Below are positions 36,188 to 55,914 of a stretch of 64,000 nt of DNA, in pieces. The position numbers and the translations under genes were made by a program. The stretch is from Candidatus Gottesmanbacteria bacterium (GTDB lineage Bacteria > Patescibacteriota > Microgenomatia > JAMCYU01), in NCBI GenBank assembly GCA_043801155.1, contig JAZDMI010000021.1, forward strand, positions 130,683-194,682. The letters run 5' to 3'. The notes beneath the pieces were generated by a model. The model saw only the letters and a program-made list of their open reading frames with translations, did no database searches and was not told the DNA's origin. Position 1 is the stretch's first letter. Every line of letters begins with the position of its first letter.

Positions 36188-36512
36188 ATGTTTACCTGTA
36201 TTTTTGAAGATAATCAGAAAACAAGCTTAAGGCATGTTGTTGTTCATGCGATAGTTGAAAGTAACGATAGTATCGCTTTTTAGAGTAAATAGTAATCCGA
36301 ATCGACCTAAAGAAGATAGGCAAAACGTAGCTCTGGAATTTATTATTAGACCATTAATACAAGTTAAAATCCCTGACAGTGAATCTAGCGAAGTTAAATG
36401 GTGGAAGACTTACGAATTAAATAAACTTGATTTTGCCTTTGATCATAAAGAAACAATTAGTATTTATTTAAAATATCGTATGAAAGCAATCAAACTACCA
36501 ATTTGTGTATAA
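36188..36512 (+). pseudogene. Putative NUDIX hydrolase remnant (N-terminal piece ends at an in-frame TAG; the C-terminal piece is in another frame; the Nudix box is missing)
   Basis: Frame 2 reads MFTCIFEDNQKTSLRHVVVHAIVESNDSIAF*. Frame 3 gives a Nudix-like C-terminal end (...KLDFAFDHKETISIYLKY). Confidence 0.3.
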
Positions 36513-37555
36513 ATATTATGGATGATATTAAAAAAAGATATCAGGAACTAGTTAACAAACTTGATCTTGAGCAAAAGAAAACAAGAATTCATCGATTAGA
36601 GGCTGAAAGCGCTGATCCAACCTTTTGGCAAAATAACCAAGCGGCGATTAAAAAAATGCAGGAATTGGCAGATATGCAAAAACTGTTGGATCAATTGGAT
36701 AAATTAGGGAAAATGATAGCCATCAATCAACAACAAGAGGCCGAAACATTATTAAGCGAACTGGAATTTGCCACTTTTCTCTCCGGATTTTATGATGCAG
36801 ATGATGCTATCGTAACCATTCATGCCGGCCAGGGTGGAACAGAAGCCATGGATTGGGCAGAAATGCTTTTAAGAATGTATATTAGATATGTCGAAAATAA
36901 GGGTTGGCATTGGGAAGAAGTTGATCGTAGTCCCGGTGAAGAAGCCGGAGTCAAGAGTGTAACCATTACCATCTCGGGGTCATATGCATATGGATTCTTA
37001 AAAGGTGAGGCCGGAACTCATCGTTTGGTCCGTCAATCCCCATTTAATGCTGATAAGCTTCGGCAGACGTCATTTGCTCTGGTAGAAGTTTTACCGGTTA
37101 TTGAAGACAGTGGGGTAATCGAGATGCGTGAAGAGGATTTAGAATGGGATTTTTTTAGAGCCTCTAGCCATGGCGGGCAAAATGTTCAAAAAGTTTCCAC
37201 CGCCGTCAGAGTTAAACACAAGCCAACCGGTATTATTGTTACCTGCCAAACCGAAAGATATCAAATACAAAATCGGGAAAATGCTTTAAAAATTCTTCGC
37301 GCCAGATTATGGAGTTTACAACAATCGCAGGTTCAGGATAAACAAAAGGAATTAAAAGGAGAATTTAAACTAGCCAGTTGGGGAAATCAGATAAGATCTT
37401 ATGTATTACATCCTTATCATCTAGTTAAAGATTTACGGACAGGTTACGAAACATCTGATACTACCGGTGTTTTGGATGGCAAACTTGAAGAATTTGTGAT
37501 TGCCTACTTGAAAAATTCTGTAAAAAAGGATATCGTAGATATGGAGGAAAAATAA
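36503..37555 (+). CDS. prfB: Peptide chain release factor 2 (uninterrupted; no programmed frameshift)
   Basis: SPF tripeptide and GGQ motif (SSHGGQNVQKV). Confidence 0.85.
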   Translation: MCINIMDDIKKRYQELVNKLDLEQKKTRIHRLEAESADPTFWQNNQAAIKKMQELADMQKLLDQLDKLGKMIAINQQQEAETLLSELEFATFLSGFYDADDAIVTIHAGQGGTEAMDWAEMLLRMYIRYVENKGWHWEEVDRSPGEEAGVKSVTITISGSYAYGFLKGEAGTHRLVRQSPFNADKLRQTSFALVEVLPVIEDSGVIEMREEDLEWDFFRASSHGGQNVQKVSTAVRVKHKPTGIIVTCQTERYQIQNRENALKILRARLWSLQQSQVQDKQKELKGEFKLASWGNQIRSYVLHPYHLVKDLRTGYETSDTTGVLDGKLEEFVIAYLKNSVKKDIVDMEEK

Positions 37556-37556
37556 T

Positions 37557-38024
37557 ATGAATGAAACAGAAAAAACTCCGCAAGAAACAAACGAACAATT
37601 AGTACAACCTATTACTCCGGCAAAAAAAATTACGCTGCCAAAAAATTCTCTTATTATAATAATGATTTTTGTCGTGATAGCCGGGGGAATTACCGGATTT
37701 TTACTAGCACAGAAGCAAACAGGTCTTTCTTTGATTGGTGGTAAAGCAAAAGTAATTCAAACAGAAAAGATAGTCGGTTCAACGGATACCAAGGCTTTTC
37801 CGGATACCGCTGAAGGAACCTTAGAGAAAGGCGGAATCGATGGTGAGGGAACTCACAAGTTAATAATGAATCCAAAAGACCCGAGCCAAACTGCATACTT
37901 AACATCTTCTGTTGTTAATCTTGATGACTTTGTCGGTAAAAAAGTCCGTGTCCATGGGCAGACATTTTCGGCCCAAAAAGCAGGATGGTTATTGGATGTC
38001 GGCCAAGTGGAGATTATTCAATGA
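37557..38024 (+). CDS. Membrane-anchored hypothetical protein
   Basis: A single TM segment after a ~30-aa cytoplasmic N-terminus. Confidence 0.4.
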   Translation: MNETEKTPQETNEQLVQPITPAKKITLPKNSLIIIMIFVVIAGGITGFLLAQKQTGLSLIGGKAKVIQTEKIVGSTDTKAFPDTAEGTLEKGGIDGEGTHKLIMNPKDPSQTAYLTSSVVNLDDFVGKKVRVHGQTFSAQKAGWLLDVGQVEIIQ

Positions 38025-38263
38025 AGGTATTTAAAAAATTTATTAACAAACTTGAAACCGGATCAAAACAAGAAATATATCGATATGTATTTTTAACTTT
38101 TCTAATTGGTTTTTTGATTGGATTTTGTTCCGGGCTTTCTTTTCGTGAAATTAGACTAAATATGTTATCTAGTAAAAAAAGAATTCAGGCAATTACCGAA
38201 GCAAAGAGCCTTAAAAATCTTTTTCAAGAGATTCCGGTGGCAACATCTTATCCTAAAAAATAA
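37985..38263 (+). CDS. Small membrane protein (hypothetical)
   Basis: 92-aa ORF with one TM segment. Weak. Confidence 0.25.
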   Translation: MVIGCRPSGDYSMKVFKKFINKLETGSKQEIYRYVFLTFLIGFLIGFCSGLSFREIRLNMLSSKKRIQAITEAKSLKNLFQEIPVATSYPKK

Positions 38264-38297
38264 ACTTACAAATATCCCAAAACCTAAATAAAATGGC

Positions 38298-38978
38298 ATG
38301 GTCAAATTTGAACACGTTTGCAAAAAATTTGGTAGTAGTCTAGCGTTGGATGATATTAGTTTTGTAATTGATGATAGTGAGTTTACTTTCATAACCGGCC
38401 CGTCGGGTGCCGGTAAAACCACAATTTTAAAGTTAATTATAAGAGAATTGATTCCTACTTCCGGTCAAATATTCCTCGATCAATGGCAGCTATCAAAAAT
38501 TAAATCCCGTGACATTCCTAAACTTCGTCGGAAAGTTGCGGTCGTTTTTCAGGATTTTCGGCTTCTTTTTGACAGAACTGTATTCGAAAATGTGGCTATT
38601 GTTTTGGAGCTTCGTGGTTTATCTGATAAAGAAATTGATAAGAAAGTGAAAAATGTCTTGGAGTTAACATCATTGACTAATAAGTCTAATCTTTTTCCGG
38701 CACAATTAGCTGGCGGAGAACTGCAAAGAACTTGTTTGGCACGAGCCCTAGTTGGTAAACCAGAGATTCTTTTAGCTGACGAACCAACTGGTAATTTAGA
38801 CCCAGCCACAGGTTGGGAAATCTTGGAGCTTTTAACACAAATTAACAAAATGGGCACCAGTGTTATTATGGCGACACATAATATGGATATTGTTAATTCA
38901 TTAAAGAAACGTGTCATTTCTGTAAACGGCGGTAAAATATTTAAAGATCAAAAAGAAAGTAAATATGAAATTATTTAA
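38298..38978 (+). CDS. ftsE: Cell-division ABC ATPase FtsE
   Basis: Walker A GPSGAGKTT and ABC signature LAGGELQR; ftsX lies downstream. Confidence 0.9.
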   Translation: MVKFEHVCKKFGSSLALDDISFVIDDSEFTFITGPSGAGKTTILKLIIRELIPTSGQIFLDQWQLSKIKSRDIPKLRRKVAVVFQDFRLLFDRTVFENVAIVLELRGLSDKEIDKKVKNVLELTSLTNKSNLFPAQLAGGELQRTCLARALVGKPEILLADEPTGNLDPATGWEILELLTQINKMGTSVIMATHNMDIVNSLKKRVISVNGGKIFKDQKESKYEII

Positions 38979-39834
38979 AACAACCTGGAAGCATATAAGA
39001 CGTTCACCATATCAGGCTTTAGCAGCAGTATGTATTATGACTTTAACCCTTTTCGTAAGTAGTATTTTTTTTCTAGTCGCTGTTGGCTCAAATATCATTT
39101 TGTCTCATTTTGAGACTAAGCCTCAGATTACGGCTTTTTTTACCGATGAAAAACCAGAAAAGGAAATTACCAGTTTACAGGAAAAGCTAAAATCTACTGG
39201 TAAAGTATCTGCTATTAAGTATGTGTCTAAAGAAGAAGCCCTAGCCATTTATCGGGAACAGAATAAGAATGATCCGCTCCTTTTAGAAATGGTGACGGCC
39301 AATATTTTACCTGCCTCAATTGAAGTATCAGCTAAAGATGTAGCCAATTTGGCTGACCTGGCTAAAATATTACAGGGTGAAGCGGGGATTCAGGAAGTCG
39401 TTTATCAAAAAGATGTCGTTGATGCATTTGTGGCGTGGACAAATGCCATCAGAAAAATTGGTCTTACCCTTGTTGGCTCATTAGCCGTAGTAGCACTTTT
39501 AATTATTCTAACAATTATTGCTATGAAAATAGCTTTGAGAAAGGAGGAAATTGAAATCTTAAGGATGATTGGAGCCTCAAATTGGTATATAAGGTTACCG
39601 TTTTTATTCGAGGGAATATTTTATGGAATAATCGGAGCCATTATTTCTTGGATGTTTTCTTATCTATTACTATTATATGCTACTCCCTTTCTTTCTTCAT
39701 TCCTGGTTGGAATTCCGATTTTACCGGTGTCACCGCTTTTCATGCTGGCACTTCTTGGAGGAATGGTATTAGCCGGAGCACTAGTTGGAGTGATTGGTAG
39801 TTTTATAGCAGTTTGGCGATATTTAAAGTCATAA
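38965..39834 (+). CDS. ftsX: Cell-division permease-like protein FtsX
   Basis: Four-TM topology with a large periplasmic loop, coupled to ftsE. Confidence 0.8.
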   Translation: MKLFKTTWKHIRRSPYQALAAVCIMTLTLFVSSIFFLVAVGSNIILSHFETKPQITAFFTDEKPEKEITSLQEKLKSTGKVSAIKYVSKEEALAIYREQNKNDPLLLEMVTANILPASIEVSAKDVANLADLAKILQGEAGIQEVVYQKDVVDAFVAWTNAIRKIGLTLVGSLAVVALLIILTIIAMKIALRKEEIEILRMIGASNWYIRLPFLFEGIFYGIIGAIISWMFSYLLLLYATPFLSSFLVGIPILPVSPLFMLALLGGMVLAGALVGVIGSFIAVWRYLKS

Positions 39835-39858
39835 ATTCGCGTATACTTTTAAATAAGC

Positions 39859-41034
39859 ATGAAATCCTTCATTAGTATTTTTTTAATAAATTGCCTTCTT
39901 CTATTTATTTTGTCTTTTCCGGTTTGGGCCATTACTGAAGATGAATGTCTCCAAAAAGGCACACCCCAAGATAAAATTAATTGTTGGACTGATCTGATAA
40001 CCCAAACTAATAAAAGAGAAGAAAGTCTTAAAAATGAAATTATTAAATTTAACGCCAATATCGCTCTTACCTCAGCCCAAATACAAAAAACCCAAGGTGA
40101 AATTGTAAAATTGGGAGAAGAAATTGATGAACTAGCAACAAAGATCGGCAGGCTTGAAGAATCTTTGGGTCAATTATCCAACGTACTTTTAGAAAGGATT
40201 ATTGAGACTTATATAAGAGGAAATATTAAACCGATAGAACTTCTTTTCTCGGCTAATGGTTTTTCCGATTTCTTGACCCGGCTTAAGTATATAAGGACAG
40301 TCCAATCACATGATAAAAAACTTATGTTTGATATGCAGGAGACAAAGGATGATTATACTGATCAACGGCAAATCAGGGAAGAAAAAAAGATCCAACAAGA
40401 AAATCTCCGGTTACAGTTAGAAAAGCAAAAAGTTTTACTGGCACAACAGATGAAAGACAAAGAGACACTTTTAGAAGTTACCAGGAATGATGAACGTCGC
40501 TATCAAGATCTTTTAAGCGCCGCCAGAGCCGAACAAGAAGCATTATTAAGAATTTTAGCTGGACAAGGAGAAGCAGCTAAAGTTGGCGATATCAAAAGCG
40601 GAGATTCTATAGGAACAATAATTTCCGGAGCATCGCCATGTTCAACCGGAACCCATCTGCATTTTGAAGTTGTTGTTTCCGGATCAACAACTAACCCGGC
40701 TAATTATCTAAAAAATATCTCTTTATCATATGATTATAATACGGGAAACATACCTGAATTTATTAATCCAACGGGATCATGGGATTGGCCGGTTGATGAA
40801 CCGATAATGATTGAACAAATTTATGGTATGTCTTATTGGGCTAGAGTTTTGAATTATTATAATGGTAGTCCTCATTCAGGCATTGATATGGTTTCAAAAT
40901 CTAGTGCAAAGGTGAAAGCGGTGCGGGATGGAATATTATATCGGGGAGGAATTGCCTGCGGTGGCGGTACATTGCCCTTTGTCAGAGTAGATCAGTCTGA
41001 CAATATCCAGACTTATTATTTACACATTTATTAA
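39859..41034 (+). CDS. M23 peptidase with N-terminal coiled coil (EnvC-like FtsEX partner)
   Basis: Signal peptide, long coiled-coil, and the M23 motif GTHLHFEV. Confidence 0.8.
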   Translation: MKSFISIFLINCLLLFILSFPVWAITEDECLQKGTPQDKINCWTDLITQTNKREESLKNEIIKFNANIALTSAQIQKTQGEIVKLGEEIDELATKIGRLEESLGQLSNVLLERIIETYIRGNIKPIELLFSANGFSDFLTRLKYIRTVQSHDKKLMFDMQETKDDYTDQRQIREEKKIQQENLRLQLEKQKVLLAQQMKDKETLLEVTRNDERRYQDLLSAARAEQEALLRILAGQGEAAKVGDIKSGDSIGTIISGASPCSTGTHLHFEVVVSGSTTNPANYLKNISLSYDYNTGNIPEFINPTGSWDWPVDEPIMIEQIYGMSYWARVLNYYNGSPHSGIDMVSKSSAKVKAVRDGILYRGGIACGGGTLPFVRVDQSDNIQTYYLHIY

Positions 41035-41043
41035 GAAGAGCCA

Positions 41044-41934
41044 ATGATTCGATTAGTCGGGATAGTCTTTTCTTTTGTTTTTATCTTGTTATTTTCTTCT
41101 AGTTTAATATTTGCTTCTACCTTAAGTCTATCTAGCCAGATGACTTCTTTAAATAATTTAGATGAAGAATATCTTGCCAATATTACGTTATCGATTAATG
41201 CCTCTGATGATACCGTTTATTATCTACGGGGTGTTTTCCACAAACAAGGAAGTTCCAATTATTGTGGTTATACATGGAATGGTACAAGCTGGTTTAGCGG
41301 ACCATATACAACTAATGAAGGATGGAAAGATTTTTTAAGTATTACCATCAAAGATAGTTCATGGTCGGGAGAACTAAAGGCAAAGATTGATCCACAAGAT
41401 TCCGGTTGTCAAGATACGGGTGCATACTTTTTTAAAGTTCAGAGATTTACTCAAAATAGTTCATCGGGTACGTTTGATCCTCAAGACGAGTTATCAATTA
41501 ATATAAATATTCCATCTCCGACACCATCCCCGGTTTCTTCCCCAACAGCAACACCACTGCCAGTAACGACAACGTCTCTAACATCTACTCCTAAACCGTC
41601 AGCCACGAGTCATCAATTATCAAGCCCGACTCCAACTCCAAAACCTACGGCTTCTCCGCTAAAATCTTTAACTCCTTCATCGACGGCTTCTTATTCGGGC
41701 CAACTTTTATCGACAGCTGCCTCAACAGTAGCGGCGATATTATCTGTAGAATCTGCTACGGTTGCCGGAACGACATCAAGTTTATTAACGACGTCGTTTG
41801 ATAAACCAATAAATAGTAATTCTCCTGGTCAAAATATCATACTCAAATCACTTTTAATTCTAGTTATTTTGGCTAGTATAGGTATGGTTTTATCAGCCTT
41901 TTGGATTCATAAAAGGAAACAGGGTATAATCTAA
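41044..41934 (+). CDS. Ser/Thr/Pro-rich surface protein with a C-terminal TM anchor (hypothetical)
   Basis: Signal peptide, a low-complexity STP region, and a C-terminal hydrophobic helix followed by KRKQ. Confidence 0.45.
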   Translation: MIRLVGIVFSFVFILLFSSSLIFASTLSLSSQMTSLNNLDEEYLANITLSINASDDTVYYLRGVFHKQGSSNYCGYTWNGTSWFSGPYTTNEGWKDFLSITIKDSSWSGELKAKIDPQDSGCQDTGAYFFKVQRFTQNSSSGTFDPQDELSININIPSPTPSPVSSPTATPLPVTTTSLTSTPKPSATSHQLSSPTPTPKPTASPLKSLTPSSTASYSGQLLSTAASTVAAILSVESATVAGTTSSLLTTSFDKPINSNSPGQNIILKSLLILVILASIGMVLSAFWIHKRKQGII

Positions 41935-41937
41935 AAC

Positions 41938-42324
41938 ATGGATAAAAGATTAATCTTATTATGGTTGCCGGTTATTATTTGGTGTGGCATTATATTTTAT
42001 TTATCAAGCCTACAGGTAAAACCGCCAACCGGAACATGGCTGGATATTGTTTTACCTTATATTGTTCATCTTGGCGAATATGGAATTTTATTTACATTAA
42101 CATGGCGGGCAAGTAAGAATCTCTATGGTTCGATTATCTTTGTCATTATCTATGCTTTTTCCGATGAAATTCATCAGGCTTTTGTACCTACCCGTACTCC
42201 GGATCTTTTAGACGTCACTACTGATATAATAGGAATGTTGTTTGCATGGTTATTAATATGGAAGTTCTTACCAAAAACGCCCAAGAAACTCAAAAACTTG
42301 GCCAAGAGCTGGCAAATAATCTAA
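41938..42324 (+). CDS. VanZ-family membrane protein
   Basis: VanZ-like motif FSDEIHQAFVPTRTPDLLDV. Confidence 0.65.
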   Translation: MDKRLILLWLPVIIWCGIIFYLSSLQVKPPTGTWLDIVLPYIVHLGEYGILFTLTWRASKNLYGSIIFVIIYAFSDEIHQAFVPTRTPDLLDVTTDIIGMLFAWLLIWKFLPKTPKKLKNLAKSWQII

Positions 42325-42710
42325 GCTTCGGCAAGCTGCGCTCAAGAAGACACGCCAGAGTGGTTTGTCTCTATGGCGAATTGGGTAGTGGCAAAACCAC
42401 TTTTACGCAGGGAGTAGCTGCTGGTTTAGGAATTAAACAGCGGATTACTTCACCGACGTTTGTATATATCCGTAACTATACCCTATACCCTAGCCCCTAT
42501 ACCCTATATCATATCGATCTTTACAGGATAGAATCTTTAAATGATGCCAAAGCCTTGGGTATTGAAGAAATATTACAAAATAAGAATAATATTGTTTTAA
42601 TTGAATGGCCGGAAAAAATAAAAGATATCCTGCCTAACAAAAGAACAGAAATTTATTTTGAGTATTTGAGTGAAAACGAGAGAAAATTAACAATCAAAGA
42701 ATACCAATAA
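42246..42710 (+). CDS. tsaE: tRNA t6A biosynthesis ATPase TsaE (YjeE)
   Basis: P-loop LYGELGSGKTT and SPTF motif. Confidence 0.8.
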   Translation: MVINMEVLTKNAQETQKLGQELANNLSFGKLRSRRHARVVCLYGELGSGKTTFTQGVAAGLGIKQRITSPTFVYIRNYTLYPSPYTLYHIDLYRIESLNDAKALGIEEILQNKNNIVLIEWPEKIKDILPNKRTEIYFEYLSENERKLTIKEYQ

Positions 42711-42719
42711 AGTAAATAT

Positions 42720-43292
42720 ATGGAAAATGTTGATAGAGCAATAAAAATAATAAATAAAGGTGGAATAATTATTTTTCCTACTGATACGGCTTTTGGAATT
42801 GGGTCCCGTATGGATAACGAGAAAAGTGTGGAGCGCCTGTTTAAGATTAGGCAAAGACCGGTAAACATGGCTGTTCCAGTTCTGGTTAGTTCGATAGACA
42901 TGGCGCAAAAATATTTACAGCCGATAGGGGACGAGGTTAAAAAATTGATGACAAAATACTGGCCCGGAGCCTTAACTGTCATTTTACCTTGTAAACCAGA
43001 ATTGGTGCCTGGTTTAGTCCGCGGCGGAGGTCAAACCCTAGGCGTACGCATGCCTAACCATGAGGTCCCTCTATATATTATAAATAGTATAGGCGTGCCT
43101 ATCTTAGGATCCTCGGCCAATTTTCATGGTCAATCCACGCCTTATAAGACTCAAGATTTGAGTCCAGAATTGATAAAAATGGTGGATTATGTAATTCCTG
43201 GGGAATGTCAGCTTGGTATGGCCTCAACAGTAATTGACTGTTCAGTTAAACCATGGAAAATTATTAGACAAGGAGCTGTAAAGATATCATAA
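42720..43292 (+). CDS. tsaC: L-threonylcarbamoyladenylate synthase (TsaC/YrdC)
   Basis: YrdC motifs IIFPTDTAFGIG and the conserved R/K...S..N pattern. Confidence 0.85.
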   Translation: MENVDRAIKIINKGGIIIFPTDTAFGIGSRMDNEKSVERLFKIRQRPVNMAVPVLVSSIDMAQKYLQPIGDEVKKLMTKYWPGALTVILPCKPELVPGLVRGGGQTLGVRMPNHEVPLYIINSIGVPILGSSANFHGQSTPYKTQDLSPELIKMVDYVIPGECQLGMASTVIDCSVKPWKIIRQGAVKIS

Positions 43293-43311
43293 TTATATAT
43301 GAATAAGTCTT

Positions 43312-43602
43312 ATGAAACTATTTATCGATACCGGAGATAATACGAAAACCATTGTTGGTTTAGATAATATTAGGTTAGAAAAGCCGACTGGACCGGATAA
43401 GTCACAGCAAGTCTTGGTTTTGATTGACCAATTACTTAAGGAAAACCATAAGCAGATTAAAGATATTACTGATATAGTAGTAAATATTGGTCCCGGTTCC
43501 TTTACCGGGCTTAGGGTCGGAATAACCGTGGCTAATACTTTAGCCTGGGTATTGAAAGTTTCGGTTAACGGAAAAGTAGCGGTTGAACCTCACTATGATT
43601 AA
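43312..43602 (+). CDS. tsaB: TsaB-like protein, N-terminal-domain-only (96 aa)
   Basis: YeaZ-like N-terminal motif GPGSFTGLRVG; lacks the C-terminal half. Confidence 0.5.
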   Translation: MKLFIDTGDNTKTIVGLDNIRLEKPTGPDKSQQVLVLIDQLLKENHKQIKDITDIVVNIGPGSFTGLRVGITVANTLAWVLKVSVNGKVAVEPHYD

Positions 43603-44200
43603 AAAATTACTATTTTTAACTCCATTATTAATATTAATCCTGTTTCTATACGGTGAAATAATTAAAAAAGAACTTGCTTATTGGTCTGATGACTTATGGG
43701 GGCAAAAACATTCTCTTGATAGTTCTTCCCAATGGCCTGAATCAGGAGTTATTCCGATTACGCCCATTAATAGAGATTTTTGTCTGGTGATTCCAAAAAT
43801 TAATCTAAATTCAGCCATAGTTAGTATAAATTCTGAAAATACTCCAGAGAATTTAACCGTGTTAAAGCAAGGATTGATACACACCAGGGAGAGTGCTTTT
43901 CCTGACCAAAGAGGACCAATTATAATTCTTGCCCATCTCCCTGATAATATTGTAAATTTATTGCATACCAATGTTTCATCATATCTATTTAATAAAATAG
44001 TTATTAATGACGAAATTGACTTATTTTACCTTAGTAAAAGGTATAAGTATTATGTTACCTATAAGATAATATTATCTACTGAAGATACAAAGGCCTATAT
44101 TAATAGTATCCAGAACAAGGATGTTTTAATATTACAAGCTTCCTATCCCCCAATATTACCATTTAAAAAATTGCTGATAATAGCTGATAAACAGAACTAA
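43583..44200 (+). CDS. Sortase paralog with the catalytic Cys replaced by Ser (TLxTC -> LILQAS) and Arg->Lys
   Basis: Aligns throughout with the sortase at 50894-51493. The catalytic His region is retained (IIILAH), but the C->S and R->K changes fall at the catalytic positions. Confidence 0.55.
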   Translation: MNLTMIKKLLFLTPLLILILFLYGEIIKKELAYWSDDLWGQKHSLDSSSQWPESGVIPITPINRDFCLVIPKINLNSAIVSINSENTPENLTVLKQGLIHTRESAFPDQRGPIIILAHLPDNIVNLLHTNVSSYLFNKIVINDEIDLFYLSKRYKYYVTYKIILSTEDTKAYINSIQNKDVLILQASYPPILPFKKLLIIADKQN

Positions 44201-44275
44201 AGCTCTATAATATTTGACATAGGCCATTTGTATCGTTATAATCTATCCATATCTACTTACAAATTCTAGATTTAT

Positions 44276-47200
44276 ATGAACCATTTAGGAAAAGATAAAG
44301 TTTTTGCCTGGCTTTCCGTGTTTTCTCTGACACTCCAAATATTAAACGGAGTGTTTTTATTTTCTCCAATTTATGCACAGGAGCAAACTCCGCAATCATC
44401 TCCAGATACTATGGTTACACCCTCTCCTTCAGTTGAACAAACAAGTAATATTGAAGTTACTCCTATACCAGATGTTTCACCGACACCTGAAATAACACCG
44501 GAACCATCGCCGAGTTTAGAACCAACACCAGTTGCAACACCAGACGTAACTCCGATTCCTGATACAACAGTTTCTCCTAATAATCAACCAGAAGCGCCTC
44601 CATCTGCACAAGCGTTAGATCAAACTCAAGCATCGCCGGAACCGGGTATTTCTCCTTCAATATCTCCTTTGGCTGAACCAGATAAAGAAGATGGCCATAT
44701 TTCCGCGGCAATTTTAAAAGATACTAAAGCAGATTCAATCGATTTAATTGATTTGGATTTTCAGGCAGAGGGAAGCGCCGTCATAAATACTGATAAATTA
44801 GATTATGCCCCAACTGATACAGTTTTAGTCACTGGCACGGGATTTTTACCCGATAAAACTTACACTATAGAAATTACTTCTCAAGATCTACCAGCTGTAG
44901 CTTTTAATGCAGAAGTTAAATCTGATTCTGCTGGTAATCTTTTTTATTCATATCAACTCGATGGAAATTACAGGCCAAATTATAAGGTCGAGATAAAAAG
45001 ACACACAGAGATAATTGCATCAACTACGTTTACGGATTCTGTTCCCTTCGGACCAACATCGTCACAAAATATTGCATGTATGGGTGATCAACCAACTGCT
45101 CCTAGTGGACTTAACTGTACTGCAAATGATATTCAAATTGCATCTGTTGATAATATACACATTGTAGCCAGCGGTCCTGATCCTGCTCACCTTACTCCAA
45201 CAGCAAGTACAGAGTGTGATTATCCTGGTCAATATATACAATTTACTGCAAGTTGGCATGTAGAATCAACGGCTACTTCCCGGTATAATGTGGGACTTTG
45301 GTTTGCTAACCAAGGTCAAACAAACGCACTTCACGGAATGTGTTCAGCTTCTACTCTTCCGAGTTCTCCTAATCCTCCTTTTTTTGAAGATACCGATGAC
45401 ACCTGTGGAGATATCCATAGCGGCGAGATAGGAACAGTAACTCCTGATATTACCGTAATAGCTCAATGTAATGCCGCACCGGGTACAAATCAATTAAGCC
45501 TTCCTTACTGTACAAGCTGGGATCAGAATGAACGAGCAGGGAATGGTTGTAATAATCCCTCCGGAACTGTACCTGGAACTCCATCGAAATGTAGTTGTGA
45601 TAACGGATTCACAGTCCCAATTATTGTTCCGCCATCAATTGAAGTGGTGAAGTCACTTTCACCGTCAAATGACCCAGGTTTATTTAATTTATTAGTTAAT
45701 ACCGTTACTAAAAAAACAGATGCTGGAAATGGCGGGACAACGGGTAAAGTTGGAATAACATTAGGAAGCAATAGCTTTGGGGAAACAGCCGGAACAGGTA
45801 CAAATTTAAATAATTATACTTCAGTTGCATCATGTGTTCTTAGGGGAACACAAACAGCCGTTTCTGCAAGTCAAAGTGGCAATACTTGGACAATAGCTAA
45901 TATTACCAATGGTCAGGATATTCTTTGCACGATTACTAATACAAGGATTAACAATGCCTCAATTACTATAGTTAAAGATGCACAACCTAATAATTCACAA
46001 GATTTTCCTTTTACAACCACAGGATCTGGACTTTCTAGTTTTAGTCTGGACGATGATTCGGATCCAACGCTTTCAAACACAAAAGTCTTCACAGATTTAG
46101 GAAGTGGTATTTATACAGTTACGGAAGGGGTAGTAAGCGGTTGGACTACCAGTCAAATTAACTGCGTTGACCCAACACAAAATTCTTCCGGAAATCTTCC
46201 GACAGCTCCAGTCGCTACTATAAATTTAGCAGCCGGAGAATCGGTTACTTGTACTTTCATTAATACCCGCGATCAAGGCACGATTGAATTAAAGAAAGTC
46301 TGGTCAGGTACTGGCGGACAAACAACCTTAAATATTGGAACCACTCCTGCCGGAAACGATACCGATACTCAATTAACCGGAGTTGATGGCGTCGCCCCAT
46401 TAACAACGGGACAAAATCAAGTTAATACGGGTACATATTACATGTCAGAAGCCGGAGGTTTAGGAAATTACAGCTCATCAGCTCTTTCCTGTTTCAATGA
46501 TGCTAATAATAACGGAACGAATGATGGGGAATCAAACGTTACAGTGGGAATAAATAATAGTGTTGTTGTGGGTACAGGCCAGCATGTTATCTGTTCTTTT
46601 ACAAACACTCGTAATACCGGCACCATAAAAGTAATAAAAGATGTTTCTCCAGATGATCAAGGAGCAACATCTTGGGATTTTGCTATTAGTGGACCAACTA
46701 ATAACTCAGCGACATTAGTTGATGGTGGACAATCAAATGCTTTTACCTCTGACACAGGAAATTATACAGTTACAGAGACCGCACATACTGGTACCAATGG
46801 AAGTAATTACAATACAACCTATTCTTGTTCAGTAGTGACGAACGAAATTACTCATGGTAGCGGTAGAATTGCCACGTTCGCTTTAGCAACAAATCAGAAC
46901 GTTGTTTGTACATTCACCAATGCACTGCGGACCGGTCATATTATTGTTGATAAAATTACAGTGCCTTCCGGTGATGCTCAAAGCTTTACCTTTGCTACAA
47001 CCGGAACCGGTTATACAGGATTCAGCTTAACAGATGTTTCAACTCCGAACGATCAAGAACTTTTGATTGGAAATTATAGTGTAACAGAAACAGGAGTTAA
47101 TGGTTGGACATTAACAAATACTTCTTGTGTCAGCTCAATTCAAGATACAGAAACTGCCAATAATCTCGAGCTTGATGCAGGCGAAACAATAACTTGTACA

Positions 47201-50200
47201 TTTACCAATACCAAAAAAGGTTCAATTACTGCTTGTAAATACAATGATGTTAACGGCAATGGTGTAATAAATCAGGGTGATGATCAACTTCTTGATGGTT
47301 GGGAGATGACTTTAAATCCCGGAAATATAAAGCAATCAACAGTTAATGGTTGTACGACTTTCAGTAACTTGTTACCAGATAATTATTCTATTATTGAAAC
47401 TCTTCAGCCTGATTGGTCAAATACTTCTGGTGGGTTGACACAAAATATTTCTCTTACTGCTGGTGAGAATTCTACGGTTAATTTTTTAAATTTTGAACTT
47501 GGGGATATTACTGTATGCAAATATAATGACTATAACGGTAATGGTCAATACGAACCGCAAGATGATTTACCATTATCAAATATTTCGATTAATCTTTTTC
47601 AAGCGATAAACCTTCTTGATACAAAATCAACTGGTTTAAATGGCTGCGTTACTTTTAACGGATTAACAGCTGGTCAATATCGCGTCGCTGAAGATTATAA
47701 CGATCCAGATTTACTTGGATATTACTCGACAAATAATATAACCCATTATGATGTTAACATTGTCTCTGGTTCACAAGAAAACAGAATCTTTTTAAATACC
47801 CAATATCGGACTATTTCTGGCACAAAATACCATGATTTAAATAATAACGGAGCAAGAGATGCCGGGGAACCAGGTCTAGAAAATTGGACAATTTTCATTG
47901 ACTATAACAATAATAATGTTCTTGATGCCGGAGAACCATCAACCACCACCAATGTTAATGGTTATTACGAATTTACCAATTTAGCAGCTGATTCCTATAC
48001 CATAGCCGAAGGACTTAAACCTGGTTGGAACCAAACTCAACCTTCAACTGGTCATTATGATGTTGATGTTCATACGGCAGTTACCTCGACTGGTAATGAT
48101 TTTGGGAACCGCGGAGCATTATCCATTTTTGCATGTAAATTTGAAGATAGTAATGGTCTGCTTGCTGGTGGAAATTTTACACCAGTTACCAACTGGGACT
48201 TTACTCTCGGACAACAGACACAGAACACCGGATCCGGTCATTGCACAACCTTTAGTAATTTAATCCCAGGAGGTTATACAGTTAGCGAACCGTCACCTTT
48301 GCCCAATGGTTGGTTTTTTGCCGATGATTCACAAGGAAGCCGTTATGTAGTTCTGATTGATCAGAATAAGACAGTAAATTTCTTTAATTATCGAAAGGGT
48401 TCAATTACCGGTCAAAAATTTAATGATTTAAATGGTAACGGCAGTAAGAATGGGGGAGAATCTGGTTTACCCGGGTGGACAATTCATTTATTAGATACAA
48501 ACGATAATGTATTGCAGACAACCTTAACGGATGCTAGCGGAAACTTCATTTTTACCAATCTTGATCCAGGGACTTATCGTATCCGGGAAGTCGGACAAAC
48601 CAGCTGGCTACAAAAAACCACAAATCCGATTGATATTGTTTTAAGTAGTAATCAAGCTGTTACTGATATTGATTTTGGTAATCAGGGTAGGGGAATGATT
48701 ACAGTCTATAAAAATGTCGATACCAACGGAGATGGTCAAGTAGAAAACACCGGAGTAACTAATTGGACTTGGGATATTACCGCGGGCGAACAGAATATCG
48801 CCACCGGTCAGACAAGAACGCTGACGGCCGGAAATTATACAATTTCTGAAGACCAACAGGCTAATTATCATATAGTTGATTTAACCTGTGGGCAAACCAG
48901 TCTGGGGGCAATCGAAACAACCAATTTTGACCTAAACCCCGGTCAAGAAATTATTTGTACTTTTACAAATGCACGTGATACCGGAACAGTAATCGTTCAT
49001 AAGTTAGTGGATAGCAATAGTGATAATCAGTATGAGGGTGGAGATGACGATGCCAATAAATTAGGATTCAGGTGGAGTTTGAATAATGAAAATCCAGCCA
49101 CTCGAGATATGGGGACCAATGCCCAAGTAACTACGATAGACAGTCATCTTATTAATGAGAATAATGTACCCGGATATGTCTTTACCGGCTGGTTTAGCGG
49201 AGAAGGAACTTGTGGGGATTTACCTGCCAACCAACTTCAGCTTCCAGTGGACATTAGTCTTATAAGAAATGGTCAATCGAGATCAATTACGCTGTGTAAC
49301 CAACTTCAGAATCCAATTCTCACCATAACGAAGTCCAATAATGCTGGTGGAGATAAAAATCCCGGTGATAATGTTTTATTTACATTGACTGTTACCGCGA
49401 CACAAAGTGCAGTTAATAATGTTATTGTTTATGATCTTCCAGCTGGAGGGTTTAAGTATCGCAGCGGCTCCTGGACTGCCAACTCAAATGTACATGGTGT
49501 TCTTAGTATTCCCGAGCCTAATTATACATCTTCCGGTAAGTGGATTTTGGGAAATATGGCCAAAGACGAGACGATTACACTTACTTATCTTGCTGATATT
49601 GACAGCGGACAACAACCCGGTCTTTACAAAGATTTAGCTTGGGCAACCGGAAAATCGCTGTCTGATACAGATGTCTTGGCTCTAGCAGTTAATCCCGGGT
49701 ACTGGGATACTAATTATGTCGGTACGCAAGTCAATATCGTGAAAGAGCAGCAATCAGGTCTTACCGTTAATGTTGAAGGCAATAAAGAGGAACAGGTTCT
49801 TGGCGCCTCAACTCAATTGCCGGCGACCGGCGCCCAGAGTAAATGGCTTATTGCCGCCTTATTATTGCTAATTCTTGGATTAGTATCTATAATTTCGTCT
49901 ACTTTTATGAAAAAAGGAAAAAAACACTTATTCTTAATTGCTATTCTATTTGTTTTAATGAATATTATGTTAGCTGGTAATGTACTGGCGGCTAGCTTAA
50001 CGGTTCGGATTGAAGAGCCAAAAACACCGACTAATCAAAATAATTTTAAAATTAATTTTGTTACCCTGGATATTGCCGGCCGTGTTATTACCGCAAATTG
50101 TTTTGTTAAAGGACCTTCAGACGCAGGTTTTAGTCAATTTGGACCTGATATAAGTCTTCCTAATGGAGGAAATAATGGAAATTGTAATGTTGATTCAACC

Positions 50201-50887
50201 ATAGTTAATAATCCCGGTACTTATCAATTTTATGTTAGAGCATCGGTTACCGGCGATCCGTCTCAAGATAGTCAGATAGTTTCAACTGAATACCAAAATA
50301 GTATTCCGGGGAATCCGGCTAATTATCAAAAAACTAAAAACCTATGCACTTACCATATAAGTTTTAAGACAGCTGACGATGGTGGAAAGACGGTTAAGGT
50401 AGAGCTTTATCGTTCGGAGAATACCACATTCAATGTGGATTCCGGTTCTCGTGTCCAATCAATGGCACTAGGTTCTAATACCGAAGGCAGTTTTGATGAT
50501 AGTCCACCCGACTGTAGTAAGACATATTATTATGGTGTACGTGCTTTTGATAGTTTCGGCAATGGTTCAGGTTTTGCCGGTGATTCATTTACGACAACCA
50601 CGACCGTGACTATTGCCGCGTCTCCATCAGCTGCTTCCGGAGCAATTCCTATTTCTGGGGCAGTAACAGGATCAGTAGTCGGTGGCGGTACAGGCGAAGA
50701 AGTAGTCGGTGCAACACCAGGCAGTGAAATTGCTTCTCCAGCTCCGGGGACTACGGCTGAAGGTCAGGTGCAAGGTGTACAAGCAACGCAGTCTGGCTTA
50801 CTAAATAAAAAAAACCTGGCAATTTTTGCTGGCATAATCATTGTTCTGGGTCTTCTTTATTATTTCTATCGGCGAAACCAGGCTTAG
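44276..50887 (+). CDS. Giant (2203 aa) sortase-substrate surface adhesin. Signal peptide, Pro/Thr-rich stalk, more than 12 CnaB/SdrD-B-like repeats (..C.FTNTR.. and YNDxNGNG Ca-type motifs), and an internal LPATG sorting signal, followed in-frame by a second signal-peptide-led ~330-aa module with its own C-terminal anchor
   Basis: Read directly from the translation: LPATG at nt 49817-49831, then a hydrophobic stretch, then MKKGKK-hydrophobic-VLAAS (an internal ATG at 49907 with no intervening stop). Confidence 0.8.
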   Translation: MNHLGKDKVFAWLSVFSLTLQILNGVFLFSPIYAQEQTPQSSPDTMVTPSPSVEQTSNIEVTPIPDVSPTPEITPEPSPSLEPTPVATPDVTPIPDTTVSPNNQPEAPPSAQALDQTQASPEPGISPSISPLAEPDKEDGHISAAILKDTKADSIDLIDLDFQAEGSAVINTDKLDYAPTDTVLVTGTGFLPDKTYTIEITSQDLPAVAFNAEVKSDSAGNLFYSYQLDGNYRPNYKVEIKRHTEIIASTTFTDSVPFGPTSSQNIACMGDQPTAPSGLNCTANDIQIASVDNIHIVASGPDPAHLTPTASTECDYPGQYIQFTASWHVESTATSRYNVGLWFANQGQTNALHGMCSASTLPSSPNPPFFEDTDDTCGDIHSGEIGTVTPDITVIAQCNAAPGTNQLSLPYCTSWDQNERAGNGCNNPSGTVPGTPSKCSCDNGFTVPIIVPPSIEVVKSLSPSNDPGLFNLLVNTVTKKTDAGNGGTTGKVGITLGSNSFGETAGTGTNLNNYTSVASCVLRGTQTAVSASQSGNTWTIANITNGQDILCTITNTRINNASITIVKDAQPNNSQDFPFTTTGSGLSSFSLDDDSDPTLSNTKVFTDLGSGIYTVTEGVVSGWTTSQINCVDPTQNSSGNLPTAPVATINLAAGESVTCTFINTRDQGTIELKKVWSGTGGQTTLNIGTTPAGNDTDTQLTGVDGVAPLTTGQNQVNTGTYYMSEAGGLGNYSSSALSCFNDANNNGTNDGESNVTVGINNSVVVGTGQHVICSFTNTRNTGTIKVIKDVSPDDQGATSWDFAISGPTNNSATLVDGGQSNAFTSDTGNYTVTETAHTGTNGSNYNTTYSCSVVTNEITHGSGRIATFALATNQNVVCTFTNALRTGHIIVDKITVPSGDAQSFTFATTGTGYTGFSLTDVSTPNDQELLIGNYSVTETGVNGWTLTNTSCVSSIQDTETANNLELDAGETITCTFTNTKKGSITACKYNDVNGNGVINQGDDQLLDGWEMTLNPGNIKQSTVNGCTTFSNLLPDNYSIIETLQPDWSNTSGGLTQNISLTAGENSTVNFLNFELGDITVCKYNDYNGNGQYEPQDDLPLSNISINLFQAINLLDTKSTGLNGCVTFNGLTAGQYRVAEDYNDPDLLGYYSTNNITHYDVNIVSGSQENRIFLNTQYRTISGTKYHDLNNNGARDAGEPGLENWTIFIDYNNNNVLDAGEPSTTTNVNGYYEFTNLAADSYTIAEGLKPGWNQTQPSTGHYDVDVHTAVTSTGNDFGNRGALSIFACKFEDSNGLLAGGNFTPVTNWDFTLGQQTQNTGSGHCTTFSNLIPGGYTVSEPSPLPNGWFFADDSQGSRYVVLIDQNKTVNFFNYRKGSITGQKFNDLNGNGSKNGGESGLPGWTIHLLDTNDNVLQTTLTDASGNFIFTNLDPGTYRIREVGQTSWLQKTTNPIDIVLSSNQAVTDIDFGNQGRGMITVYKNVDTNGDGQVENTGVTNWTWDITAGEQNIATGQTRTLTAGNYTISEDQQANYHIVDLTCGQTSLGAIETTNFDLNPGQEIICTFTNARDTGTVIVHKLVDSNSDNQYEGGDDDANKLGFRWSLNNENPATRDMGTNAQVTTIDSHLINENNVPGYVFTGWFSGEGTCGDLPANQLQLPVDISLIRNGQSRSITLCNQLQNPILTITKSNNAGGDKNPGDNVLFTLTVTATQSAVNNVIVYDLPAGGFKYRSGSWTANSNVHGVLSIPEPNYTSSGKWILGNMAKDETITLTYLADIDSGQQPGLYKDLAWATGKSLSDTDVLALAVNPGYWDTNYVGTQVNIVKEQQSGLTVNVEGNKEEQVLGASTQLPATGAQSKWLIAALLLLILGLVSIISSTFMKKGKKHLFLIAILFVLMNIMLAGNVLAASLTVRIEEPKTPTNQNNFKINFVTLDIAGRVITANCFVKGPSDAGFSQFGPDISLPNGGNNGNCNVDSTIVNNPGTYQFYVRASVTGDPSQDSQIVSTEYQNSIPGNPANYQKTKNLCTYHISFKTADDGGKTVKVELYRSENTTFNVDSGSRVQSMALGSNTEGSFDDSPPDCSKTYYYGVRAFDSFGNGSGFAGDSFTTTTTVTIAASPSAASGAIPISGAVTGSVVGGGTGEEVVGATPGSEIASPAPGTTAEGQVQGVQATQSGLLNKKNLAIFAGIIIVLGLLYYFYRRNQA

Positions 50888-50893: not shown

Positions 50894-51493
50894 GTGAAAA
50901 ACTTGCCTAAAATCCTTACACTTTTTGGTTTTCTATCGATCTTAACCTCGGGAATTATTTTGATTTTTACTTTTTATCCGGTTTTTAATACCGAAATAAA
51001 CTACGAGATTAAATCAGTAATTAAACCATTTATTAAACAATCTCTCAAACCTATTGACACGGACTTTGGGATTGTCATTCTCAAAATTGATGCTAACAGC
51101 AAAATTGTCGCTAACGTTGATCCTTATAACTCAAAGGAATACCAATGGGCTTTAACCAAAGGTGTAGCCCATGCCCGCGGATCTTCTTTTCCCGGAGAAC
51201 TTGGTAATGTTTTTATTTTTTCTCACTCATCAGTGAACTTTTATGAAGCAGTCCGCTATAATTCGATTTTTTACCTTCTTAATAAACTGGAAAAGGGGGA
51301 CGAGATTGATTTATATTACAAAGACAAGAAGTTTAAGTATCTGGTTAATGAGAAAAAAATGGTCAATTCCGGAGATATTCAATACTTATCCGGTAAAAAT
51401 TCAGATAGAACCGTTACCTTGATGACTTGCTGGCCGCCAGGTACTGATTTAAAAAGATTAATAGTCATAGCTGATTATTCCTCGATAAATTAA
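50894..51493 (+). CDS. Sortase (canonical His / TLxTC / Arg)
   Basis: N-terminal TM segment, IFSHSS His region, VTLMTCWPPG Cys motif, and LKRLIVIAD Arg. Confidence 0.8.
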   Translation: MKNLPKILTLFGFLSILTSGIILIFTFYPVFNTEINYEIKSVIKPFIKQSLKPIDTDFGIVILKIDANSKIVANVDPYNSKEYQWALTKGVAHARGSSFPGELGNVFIFSHSSVNFYEAVRYNSIFYLLNKLEKGDEIDLYYKDKKFKYLVNEKKMVNSGDIQYLSGKNSDRTVTLMTCWPPGTDLKRLIVIADYSSIN

Positions 51494-51559: not shown

Positions 51560-53224
51560 ATGCCTATTAATCAAGTAACCTTAATAAAACTTATTGCTGA
51601 TAGCGGTTTAATCTCTAAGGATGATTTGCGCAATGCCCAAAATACTGCCGATCACTTAGGAAGTACTCGAACCGATATTCTTATTCGGCAAGATTATCTT
51701 AAAGAAGAAGACTTGGGTAATCTATTAAGTAAATTTTTTAAAGTAAAGTATATTGATTTAACTAAAATTGATATACCCATAAAGACTCTTAATTTAATTC
51801 CCGAGTCTTTAGCGGTTGATAGTCGGGTTATTGTTTTTGCCAAAAAAGACGATCAAGTAATGGTGGCAATGGATGACCCTTGGGATCTTGAAGCGATAGA
51901 GTTAGTAAGAAAAACCATTGGTTCGCGGACTAATATTATTCCCCACGTAACAACCCCGGAAGGTATTAAAGAGGCCCTTAAGTTCTATAAAAAGCGGACT
52001 AAAGAAGAGATGGAAGGGCAAATTGAAATAACCAAGACAAAAGACTTATCGGCAATTACGATTGTCAATCAATTGCTAGAAGATGCATGTCGGCAAGAGG
52101 CATCTGATATTCATATCGAACCTTTATCTTCCCAACTGTTAGTTCGATTACGGACTGATGGCGTATTGCATGATCATATGTTACTAGCTAAAGAAATGCA
52201 TCCGGCCATTGTTGCCCGGATAAAAATCCTTTCCGAACTAAAACTTGATGAACAACGTCTTCCGCAGGATGGCCGTTTTTCCTTTGAGACGAAAATGGGA
52301 GAAATAATTGCTCTTCGTGTCTCAACTGCTCCGACCGTATACGGAGAGAAAATAGTCTTAAGGATTCTTCATGATGCTATTTCTAAATTTAATTTAGATG
52401 AACTAGGTTTAATCTCCTCTGATCAAGAAATTATCAGCCGTGTTATTCAACGAACACACGGGATGTTTTTGGTGACCGGTCCGACCGGATCTGGCAAGAC
52501 AACAACTCTATATACAATTTTAGGACTTCTGAACCGACCGGGTGTAAACATTATGACGATTGAAGATCCGGTAGAAAATAGAATTCCCCGGGTAAACCAG
52601 ATACAGGTAAATCCGCAGATTAATCTGGATTTTGCTTCAGGTTTGCGATCGATGTTAAGGCAAGACCCGGATATTATTATGGTTGGTGAAATTCGTGATC
52701 GGGAAACGGCTGTTATTGCTATTAATGCTGCCATGACCGGTCATTTAGTCTTTTCTTCAGTTCATGCCAATACGGCTGCCGGAGCTATTCCAAGAATGAT
52801 CGATTTAGGAGTTGAACCGTTTCTGTTGGCTTCAACCGTTAATATGGTAATCGCCCAACGATTAGTGAGGATCCTTTGCCCGAAATGCCTGGAGGAAATA
52901 AAAATTAGTCCATTAATAAATCAAAGACTGGAAAAATCACAAGCATTTATTTCTCCGGATATTAAAAAGAATTTAACCAGGGATTTTCGAGCCAAAGGAT
53001 GTTCAAACTGCTACTTTACCGGATTTCGTGGCCGGATGGGTATTTTTGAAATTATAAATTTAGACATCCATCTTCAGGAGTTAATAATCAACAAGTCCTC
53101 CAGCAATCTGATATGGCAGGCAGCCCGGGAGGACGGAGCCAGAAGTATGTTGGAAGACGGTTTACTTAAAGCAAATCGGGGGGTTACGCCAATTGAAGAA
53201 GTCTTCCGGGTAATATCAGAGTAA
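51560..53224 (+). CDS. pilB: Type IV pilus assembly ATPase PilB (GspE family)
   Basis: T2SE N-domain, Walker A GPTGSGKTTT, Asp/His boxes, and a Zn CxxC...CxxC motif. Confidence 0.9.
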   Translation: MPINQVTLIKLIADSGLISKDDLRNAQNTADHLGSTRTDILIRQDYLKEEDLGNLLSKFFKVKYIDLTKIDIPIKTLNLIPESLAVDSRVIVFAKKDDQVMVAMDDPWDLEAIELVRKTIGSRTNIIPHVTTPEGIKEALKFYKKRTKEEMEGQIEITKTKDLSAITIVNQLLEDACRQEASDIHIEPLSSQLLVRLRTDGVLHDHMLLAKEMHPAIVARIKILSELKLDEQRLPQDGRFSFETKMGEIIALRVSTAPTVYGEKIVLRILHDAISKFNLDELGLISSDQEIISRVIQRTHGMFLVTGPTGSGKTTTLYTILGLLNRPGVNIMTIEDPVENRIPRVNQIQVNPQINLDFASGLRSMLRQDPDIIMVGEIRDRETAVIAINAAMTGHLVFSSVHANTAAGAIPRMIDLGVEPFLLASTVNMVIAQRLVRILCPKCLEEIKISPLINQRLEKSQAFISPDIKKNLTRDFRAKGCSNCYFTGFRGRMGIFEIINLDIHLQELIINKSSSNLIWQAAREDGARSMLEDGLLKANRGVTPIEEVFRVISE

Positions 53225-53228
53225 TTTT

Positions 53229-54443: not shown

Positions 54444-54454
54444 GATGTTTATTT

Positions 54455-54964
54455 ATGTTTCAAAAAGGCTTTACCTTAATCGAGATAATAATTGTATTGG
54501 CGGTAATTGCTATTTTATCTGTTGTTGGGATTGAATCGATAATTGAGTTTCAAAAAAGCGCTCTTCTTGGCGGAGTATCTGATGAATTCATGGCTGTTTT
54601 AAGATCGGCGCGGACAAAAAGTATTTCCGGCGAGCTTCTTGCAGGTGAGAGCCCTGAAAAGTTTTCCGAAACTGGTTTACCCATCTATGGAGTCAGAACC
54701 ACAGCTTCAAGTTATACGTTGTTTCGCCGTTATCAATTAGCGTGTCCACCAACACCTTGTTCTCCAATTCAAAATAGTGATCTTGAAAATGAAAGTTATT
54801 CATTAGACCCACACTTGACTTTTTCAACTATTGGCGAAGTTTTATTCGATCGTATTACTGGTGTTCCAATTACTGGTAGTACTACCCAATTTACTCTTGA
54901 AAGAGTCGGTTCAAGCGATCATAGTACTTTGGAAATAAATAACGAGGGAGTAGTCAAAAAATGA
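54455..54964 (+). CDS. Prepilin-type N-terminal cleavage/methylation-domain protein (minor pilin)
   Basis: Class III signal KG/FTLIEIIIV with Glu at +5. Confidence 0.7.
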   Translation: MFQKGFTLIEIIIVLAVIAILSVVGIESIIEFQKSALLGGVSDEFMAVLRSARTKSISGELLAGESPEKFSETGLPIYGVRTTASSYTLFRRYQLACPPTPCSPIQNSDLENESYSLDPHLTFSTIGEVLFDRITGVPITGSTTQFTLERVGSSDHSTLEINNEGVVKK

Positions 54965-55912: not shown

Positions 55913-55914
55913 AT

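Follow-up and report, generated by a model that had tools for sequence, protein, structure and literature searches.

We describe a sortase homologue that has lost its nucleophile cysteine. It is encoded in a 64-kb stretch of DNA (hereafter the window) from a Candidatus Gottesmanbacteria metagenome-assembled genome (MAG) of the Microgenomates, within the candidate phyla radiation (CPR); the guanine-cytosine (GC) content is ~36% and nearly all genes lie on the + strand. The gene spans 43595..44200 (+), in a position that we call slot A, and its product of 201 aa from the ATG at 43595 is identified as a sortase homologue by Pfam, by its AlphaFold2 (AF2) model and by Foldseek. The NCBI annotation uses the same start and length (P0001, 'MAG: sortase [Candidatus Gottesmanbacteria bacterium]'), and an in-frame TTG at 43583 gives an intact open reading frame (ORF) of 205 codons that ends at 44200 on the + strand. 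We suggest that this paralog is a retained pseudo-sortase with a non-catalytic role, and we consider this reading fairly likely. It is a blend of two claims. That the gene is a retained, catalytically dead copy is, in our judgement, highly probable. That its role lies specifically in sorting, as a receptor or partner, is a proposal that we make only tentatively.

The initial annotation had proposed that this protein is a paralog of the sortase encoded at 50894-51493, and the comparison bears this out. The two share 35% identity over 145 aa (BLASTP, E = 2e-27), and the strings quoted in support are reproduced, namely DFCLVIPKINLNS aligned with DFGIVILKIDANS, EIDLFY with EIDLYY, VLILQASYPP with VTLMTCWPPG and FKKLLIIAD with LKRLIVIAD. 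The Pfam Sortase model PF04203 matches the paralog with 33.8 bits (gathering score 26.6 bits) over profile positions 1-106 of 125, while a family hidden Markov model (HMM) built from 149 relatives gives 184.8 bits. By sequence, the protein belongs to the sortase superfamily (PF04203 / MEROPS C60 fold). It falls below the cut-off of every NCBIfam class model A-F, with class D (27.6 bits, cut-off 165) and SrtD (24.9 bits, cut-off 140) the best, and the active neighbour also fails every one of these class models (class C, 59.3 bits vs 160). Since both proteins miss the class cut-offs, the whole CPR sortase family lies outside the named classes A-F. Scanning the 64-kb window with the family HMM revealed no third sortase homologue.

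The catalytic positions were read from a pairwise BLASTP alignment, a 152-sequence MAFFT alignment and an HMM alignment, all three of which are concordant (residue numbering of P0001). His114, in the string ILAHLP (43934..43936, +), keeps the catalytic histidine position. Ser183 (TCC; 44141..44143, +) occupies the column of the nucleophile cysteine of the TLxTC motif, and Lys192 (44168..44170, +) the column of the catalytic arginine in strand β8. The Cys-to-Ser and Arg-to-Lys exchanges pointed out in the initial annotation are therefore correct, and its label 'pseudo-sortase' suits a protein in which both residues are gone. Further motif residues have been lost too, so that Ser115, Thr182, Gly187, Thr188 and Arg192 are all absent. 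Because two of the three residues expected of a sortase enzyme are missing, with only the histidine present, the paralog should not be filed as an enzyme.

Two other explanations of the missing cysteine were also considered. A relocated cysteine nucleophile is ruled out, since the sole cysteine of the paralog, Cys63 (DFCLVIPK), is not conserved (relatives have Ser or Gly there) and 12 of 13 Cys-less proteins, described below, contain no cysteine at all; the cysteine elsewhere at the active site that would have spoken against the proposed exchange was thus not found. A sequencing error turning TGC into TCC is likewise ruled out, because the syntenic counterparts also lack the cysteine and many further motif residues differ.

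Though two of the three catalytic residues are gone, the fold is predicted to be kept. An AF2 model computed with 149 homologues as input has a mean pLDDT of 91.3 and a pTM of 0.87, and it consists of an N-terminal helix followed by a β-barrel. The top 50 Foldseek matches of this model in the PDB are without exception sortases, drawn from classes C, D, A and E, each with probability 1.00; the E-values reach 8.5e-10 and the TM-scores lie at 0.5-0.7. The model thus has the sortase β-barrel fold. The N-terminal hydrophobic membrane anchor LLFLTPLLILILFLY (43607..43651, +; residues 5-19) lies inside a helix that DSSP assigns to residues 2-34 of the model, and canonical family members have the same anchor architecture. 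Such an anchor would place the sortase domain outside the cell. From the model, the paralog is predicted to be a well-folded, membrane-anchored sortase domain.

The loss of the cysteine is not confined to the window. HMMER, run exhaustively over 1.84 billion cluster representatives, gave 772 relatives. Among the best 150 of these, which were aligned, 133 carry His/Cys/Arg and 13, including the window protein, lack the cysteine. Eight residue types (S, T, G, V, N, A, L, Y) occupy the Cys column of these 13 proteins. At the His, Cys and Arg columns, the window protein itself (P0001, 100% identity) reads H S K, P0002 (46% identical to it) H T R and P0003 (41%) H G R. The remaining ten read H V P (P0014), Q G R (P0008), H N K (P0027), H A R (P0059), H Y R (P0150), H L R (P0087), H G T (P0101), H G L (P0103), H G R (P0119) and H S R (P0114). 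Positions conserved in at least 85% of 137 canonical sequences served as the reference for what has been kept. The fold-core residues I66, P67, K68, G93, P103, N126, Y152 and A197 are retained in 12-13 of the 13 proteins, and the β7 strand LxLQ and the β8 strand LL.IA, which line the substrate groove in other sortases, are still conserved. The surroundings of the active site are eroded, with Ser115 kept in 4/13, Ala127 in 2/13, Ala97 in 6/13, Arg192 in 8/13 and Cys183 in 0/13, and few members have lost as much there as the window protein. His114 is kept in 12/13. Other searches added little to this set. A word-indexed search with the paralog alone returned the paralog as the sole match, and one with a profile of eight Cys-less members returned, beyond the query members, canonical sortases only. 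Searching genomes and metagenomes with a three-sequence alignment gave almost exclusively canonical H/C/R proteins and one new Cys-less case, in L025. In addition, ~35 further metagenomic sortases of the slot-A type are all H/C/R, with almost invariant motifs.

Slot A ends a co-directional gene string, RF-FtsE-FtsX-M23 (PcsB-like)-(surface protein)-VanZ-TsaE-(Sua5)-TsaB-(epimerase), after which the paralog follows. The gene order from RF to the sortase (36503-43602 in the window) is conserved in L001, L004, L008, L012, L014, L017 and L025, a set that spans distant branches of the Microgenomates and a MAG labelled Paceibacterota. What occupies the slot and what comes after it vary. In the window and in L001 the Cys-less copy is followed by a giant LPATG adhesin, a gene that we call p323 and an active sortase, in a position termed slot B. 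In L008-L010 an active sortase is directly adjacent to the Cys-less copy. In L003 the next gene is an S8 peptidase, which in L001 follows sortase B, and the adhesin-p323-sortase B cassette is absent. In L004 a CAP-domain protein comes next and there is no other sortase within ~10 kb on either side. L012 (Ca. Microgenomatus), L014 and L017 (a complete Ca. Woesebacteria genome, CP011214) carry a canonical H/C/R sortase in slot A; in L012 and L017 an LPxTG adhesin and a p323-like ORF follow, and the locus has no second sortase. An LPxTG adhesin and a p323-like ORF likewise stand after a canonical H/C/R sortase in L011, where the locus again lacks a second sortase, but its upstream string is unrecognisable. 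In L013 (Daviesbacteria) a slot-A sortase was not seen, and the locus holds adhesin, p323 and an active sortase B. The bracketing of a substrate gene by two sortase homologues, as described in the initial annotation, is therefore real in the window, where the two flank the LPATG adhesin, but it is not a constant arrangement (L003, L004, L008).

Sequence comparison points to the origin of the dead copy. The paralog is 34-38% identical to canonical sortases of the slot-A type vs 31% to sortase B, and it shares an extended N-terminal region with its closest canonical relatives (P0004, L012). In distance-based neighbour-joining trees the window protein groups with that of L001 (88% bootstrap) and then with that of L003 (64%). 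We suggest that the paralog descends from the canonical sortase type that holds the same slot upstream of an LPxTG adhesin in other Microgenomates. In the simplest history, the upstream sortase would have served the ancestral cassette; on the branch that led to the window, the downstream sortase would then have taken over, and the upstream copy would have lost catalysis and been retained. A recent tandem duplication of the slot-B sortase is ruled out, since the paralog is closer to canonical slot-A-type sortases than to sortase B. Elsewhere in the tree, P0103 groups with the L025 protein (100% bootstrap) and P0114 with the H/C/R protein P0105 (86%). Because the remaining Cys-less proteins fall beside canonical relatives that differ from case to case, the cysteine appears to have been lost repeatedly.

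A dead copy has an active sortase next to it, or no more than 6 kb away, in four independent contexts. Apart from window/L001 and L008, these are L025, where a second sortase lies 6 kb downstream of the Cys-less copy, and L038, where a 449-aa fn3-sortase fusion with H/C/R intact lies directly upstream of the Cys-less P0101 (H/G/T). The L038 genes (304-2531) are a further pair of an active and a dead sortase, unrelated to that of the window. Redundancy does not force the loss of the cysteine, since two active sortases coexist in L052 and in L056. The gene context of P0008, P0027, P0059, P0119 and P0114 is uninformative, as the contigs are too short.

Since its constant neighbours are RF-FtsE-FtsX-M23-VanZ-TsaE-TsaB and not the adhesin, the paralog could instead have a non-catalytic role outside LPxTG sorting, for example in the envelope or in division together with FtsEX, the M23/PcsB-like hydrolase and VanZ, with the sortase fold used as a scaffold. 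The start of the paralog overlaps the stop of tsaB by 8 nt, ATGATTAA (43595..43602, +), and the overlap is the same in L001 (ATGTTTAA) and L003 (ATGATTAA), which suggests translational coupling of the paralog to tsaE-sua5-tsaB. The adhesin, for its part, has a consensus promoter of its own, and L003 and L004 have no adhesin cassette alongside. However, we regard such a role as unlikely. The active slot-A sortases that stand directly before LPxTG adhesins in L012 and L017 show the same synteny, so the linkage to the division string probably reflects inheritance of the gene order and not a shared function. The conservation of the groove-lining strands of β7 and β8 also speaks against a mere scaffold.

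No reading frame is broken in the window, L001, L003 or L004 despite 29-46% identity, and neither stops nor frameshifts occur in any of the 13 Cys-less homologues or their loci. At this composition, 201 stop-free codons would arise by chance with a probability of ~7e-8. Selection was measured as the proportion of nonsynonymous differences (pN) vs that of synonymous differences (pS), since the window and L001 (GCA_040960625.1) have diverged to the point where dS is saturated and does not allow a formal dN/dS. Between these two genomes, the housekeeping neighbours have 64-79% amino-acid identity with pN 0.12-0.19 and pS 0.59-0.82, the active sortase has 68% with pN 0.21 and pS 0.80, and the Cys-less paralog has 46% with pN 0.33 and pS 0.79. 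Since synonymous sites are at or near saturation, the true omega of the paralog should be well below 0.4. The L008-L010 loci (P0150) are identical at the DNA level and are uninformative for selection. Purifying selection thus acts on the paralog, though less strictly than on the active sortase, which is the usual signature of a pseudoenzyme. The pseudogene-like decay named at the outset as an argument against the proposal is not seen: no relative has a frameshift or stop, and pN lies far below pS.

These data bear on whether the gene could be a functionless relic, that is, a redundant copy which was inactivated after the second sortase arrived and is now decaying slowly. We think this quite improbable. 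A relic would agree with a paralog that evolves faster than all neighbouring genes, with active-site motifs eroded differently in each lineage, with the rarity of the Cys-less clade and with the presence of a second, active sortase in the window and L001, but it does not sit well with an intact ORF at pN 0.33 where pS, at ~0.8, is saturated, nor with the lack of any stop or frameshift in the window, L001, L003, L004, L008 and the other Cys-less homologues. The fold-core residues kept in 12-13 of 13 proteins, the confident AF2 model, the conserved tsaB overlap and the retention of the paralog in L003, although the adhesin cassette is absent from that locus, argue in the same direction.

The serine itself is not a conserved feature. 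The codon at the Cys site is TCC (Ser) in the window, ACT (Thr) in L001, GGT (Gly) in L003 and GTC (Val) in L004, so that Ser is unique to the window genome among the syntenic counterparts; the survey of related genomes proposed in the initial annotation thus finds that it has not been kept. In homologues that lost the cysteine independently, this column holds G, N, A, L, Y or S. In Staphylococcus aureus SrtA, the engineered C184S variant is reported to have dramatically decreased activity (PMC4827206), and it serves as an inert, folded, cys-less scaffold (PMC5578623). The idea of a Ser-based transpeptidase or hydrolase loses its footing here: a conserved Ser-nucleophile mechanism is unsupported because of the Thr, Gly and Val in the syntenic counterparts, the eight residues among 13 proteins, the loss of the neighbouring motif and the C184S data. 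An active enzyme in which Ser183, with His114 and Lys192, acts as hydroxyl nucleophile on LPATG is most improbable, even though Ser stands exactly in the Cys column, His is kept, the closest ortholog has Thr, likewise with a hydroxyl, and Lys could in principle stand in for Arg as the cationic group, since Thr182, Gly187, Thr188 and Ser115, all gone in the paralog, are invariant in ~137 canonical relatives.

We therefore return to the retained pseudo-sortase. Such a protein would be a membrane-anchored, correctly folded domain that is no longer able to form the thioacyl intermediate and that would act without catalysis on the outer side of the membrane. It would most likely work by binding LPxTG sorting signals or by pairing with the active sortase, so that it may serve as a receptor, a holdase or a regulatory partner. 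More broadly, Cys-less sortase-fold proteins might form a recurrent functional class of pseudo-sortases in the CPR (Microgenomates), acting as sorting-signal receptors or as obligate or regulatory partners that time or place giant LPxTG adhesins on episymbiotic cells. This wider proposal is speculative, and we hold it to be doubtful at present.

Several points weigh against a pseudo-sortase with a function in sorting. The paralog evolves ~1.6-2x faster than the active sortase (46% vs 68% identity; pN 0.33 vs 0.21), and the Cys-less clade appears to be rare among the sequences searched. With the histidine kept in nearly all Cys-less proteins, some residual chemistry may persist. Dead and active sortases would be found together just as readily had redundancy done no more than allow the loss, and a binding or partner function is one that we infer. 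L003 and L004 keep the dead copy with neither an adhesin nor a second sortase beside it, within a sequence that is 3 kb long in all for L003 and covers ~10 kb on each side for L004; for this reason the role of the paralog may not be tied to the adhesin. In addition, the deeper nodes of the tree are weak (20-64% bootstrap), so that the number of losses and strict slot-A orthology are not firmly established.

The genes downstream of the paralog form the cassette on which a sorting function would act. A giant surface protein with SpaA / SdrD-B repeats is encoded at 44276..49906 (+; Pfam SdrD_B, SpaA_4, SpaA and Gram_pos_anchor; TIGR01167). A motif scan places its LPATG at nt 49817-49831, followed by a hydrophobic segment, and the ORF that contains it has 2203 codons and is flanked by the two sortase homologues. 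The 75-nt gap between the paralog stop and the adhesin start holds a perfect sigma-70 consensus, TTGACA-17-TATAAT (12/12; 44214..44242, +). Adhesin, p323 and sortase B probably form a transcription unit of their own, apart from the paralog. The slot-B sortase (50894..51493, +) has an intact His, TLMTC Cys and Arg, scores 75.7 bits with Pfam and 49 bits with TIGR01076 (cut-off 39.35), and is 68% identical to its L001 ortholog.

Between the adhesin and the slot-B sortase lies the p323 homologue (49907..50887, +), with 326 aa from MKKGKKHLF, which here continues the reading frame of the adhesin as a fusion. A signal or transmembrane segment stands at its N terminus and a transmembrane segment at its C terminus, and it matched no Pfam family. 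It is 50% identical to a separate 323-aa gene of L001 (18768-19739), and further copies occur in L013 (5245-6222), L023, L024 and L026. In several CPR lineages p323 follows the LPxTG giant adhesin, directly precedes the sortase, or both; these lineages are Gottesman-, Davies-, Woese- and Moranbacteria, together with MAGs labelled Saccharibacteria. As a third component of the adhesin-sortase cassette, p323 is conserved but uncharacterised. In the window the adhesin ORF runs past the LPATG in frame into p323 (IISSTF-MKKGKKHLF; junction at ~49890-49930). In L001 p323 is a separate, overlapping gene, and the adhesins of L001, L011, L012, L013 and L017 end 24-51 aa after the LPxTG. The junction contains T4, A6 and A7 runs, and with one T fewer the adhesin would end in SSTL and a stop, with an ATGA overlap. 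The junction may be either a real fusion that sortase cleavage could resolve or a homopolymer indel error.

Some further features of the region were also observed. The TsaB gene (43312-43602) codes for no more than 96 aa, which align with positions 30-84 of the TsaD/TsaB Pfam model (264 positions), and a short TsaB of 96-108 aa is also present in L001, L003, L004 and L008; a minimal TsaB is apparently typical of the lineage of the window. When the TsaE ORF is read from its first ATG, its beginning covers the last 79 nt of the VanZ-like gene (42246-42324). Its L001 ortholog is 13 aa shorter, and the true TsaE start probably lies further downstream. Right after the active sortase, 51560-58790 encodes a type IV pilus cluster with a PilB ATPase, a PilC platform protein, PilX_N, a PilM-like protein and two N-methyl pilin-like genes (54455, 55388); L001 has an S8 (fervidolysin-like) peptidase in its place. 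Across 1-64000, almost every gene-like ORF of at least 90 aa lies on the + strand and the GC skew stays above zero in nearly all 2-kb bins, which is consistent with one long, extremely co-oriented replichore arm.

Comparison with known systems shows what is shared and what sets the paralog apart. Canonical CPR/Microgenomates sortases (P0004, P0005; L017, L012) are 33-38% identical to the paralog and have the same length, membrane anchor and extended N-terminal region; those of L012 and L017 also share its slot, with RF-FtsEX-M23-VanZ before them and a giant LPxTG adhesin after. Whereas these relatives have near-invariant YxFAHSTD, TLTLQTCYPPGT and KRL motifs, the paralog has IILAHLPD, VLILQASYPPIL and KKL. 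The eight-stranded sortase β-barrel is common to the paralog and to sortases of classes C, D and E, such as Streptococcus agalactiae SrtC1 (3rbj), Clostridium perfringens SrtD (4d70, the best PDB sequence match of the paralog) and Thermobifida fusca SrtE (9m2g). However, enzymes of these types are 14-20% identical to it and all use His/Cys/Arg. The S. aureus SrtA variants C184S and C184A resemble the paralog in being sortase folds whose nucleophile cysteine has been replaced and which stay folded (PMC5578623). C184S is a laboratory point mutant, though, whereas the paralog is a natural gene, apparently under selection, with many further changes at the active site.

Pseudoenzymes are common in other protein families. 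One parallel is the iRhoms, inactive homologues of rhomboids, which are membrane-anchored, have lost their catalytic residues, are retained by selection and coexist with active paralogs. Their client-binding or regulatory function has been demonstrated, while that of the sortase paralog is a prediction, and both fold and organisms are unrelated. Sortases are cysteine transpeptidases, and they are drug and biotechnology targets. For the CPR, the literature records no more than that they are near-ubiquitous in Microgenomates (PMC6744442). In full-text literature searches we found no description of a natural Cys-less sortase, a pseudo-sortase or an inactive sortase paralog, in keeping with the initial annotation, which was aware of no described Cys-to-Ser sortase of this kind. 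The paralog extends a known phenomenon, that of pseudoenzymes, to the sortases and is not a new category.

In practical terms the finding has limited reach: none of the organisms is in culture, the clade is small and the role is an inferred one. The loci nevertheless provide a natural series for the passage from redundancy to pseudoenzyme, with an active sortase upstream only, an active sortase downstream only, and a dead copy upstream with an active one downstream. If our reading is correct, sortases would join the enzyme families that have regulatory pseudoenzymes. There would then be an extra layer of control over the display of surface adhesins in CPR bacteria, whose attachment to their hosts is little known.

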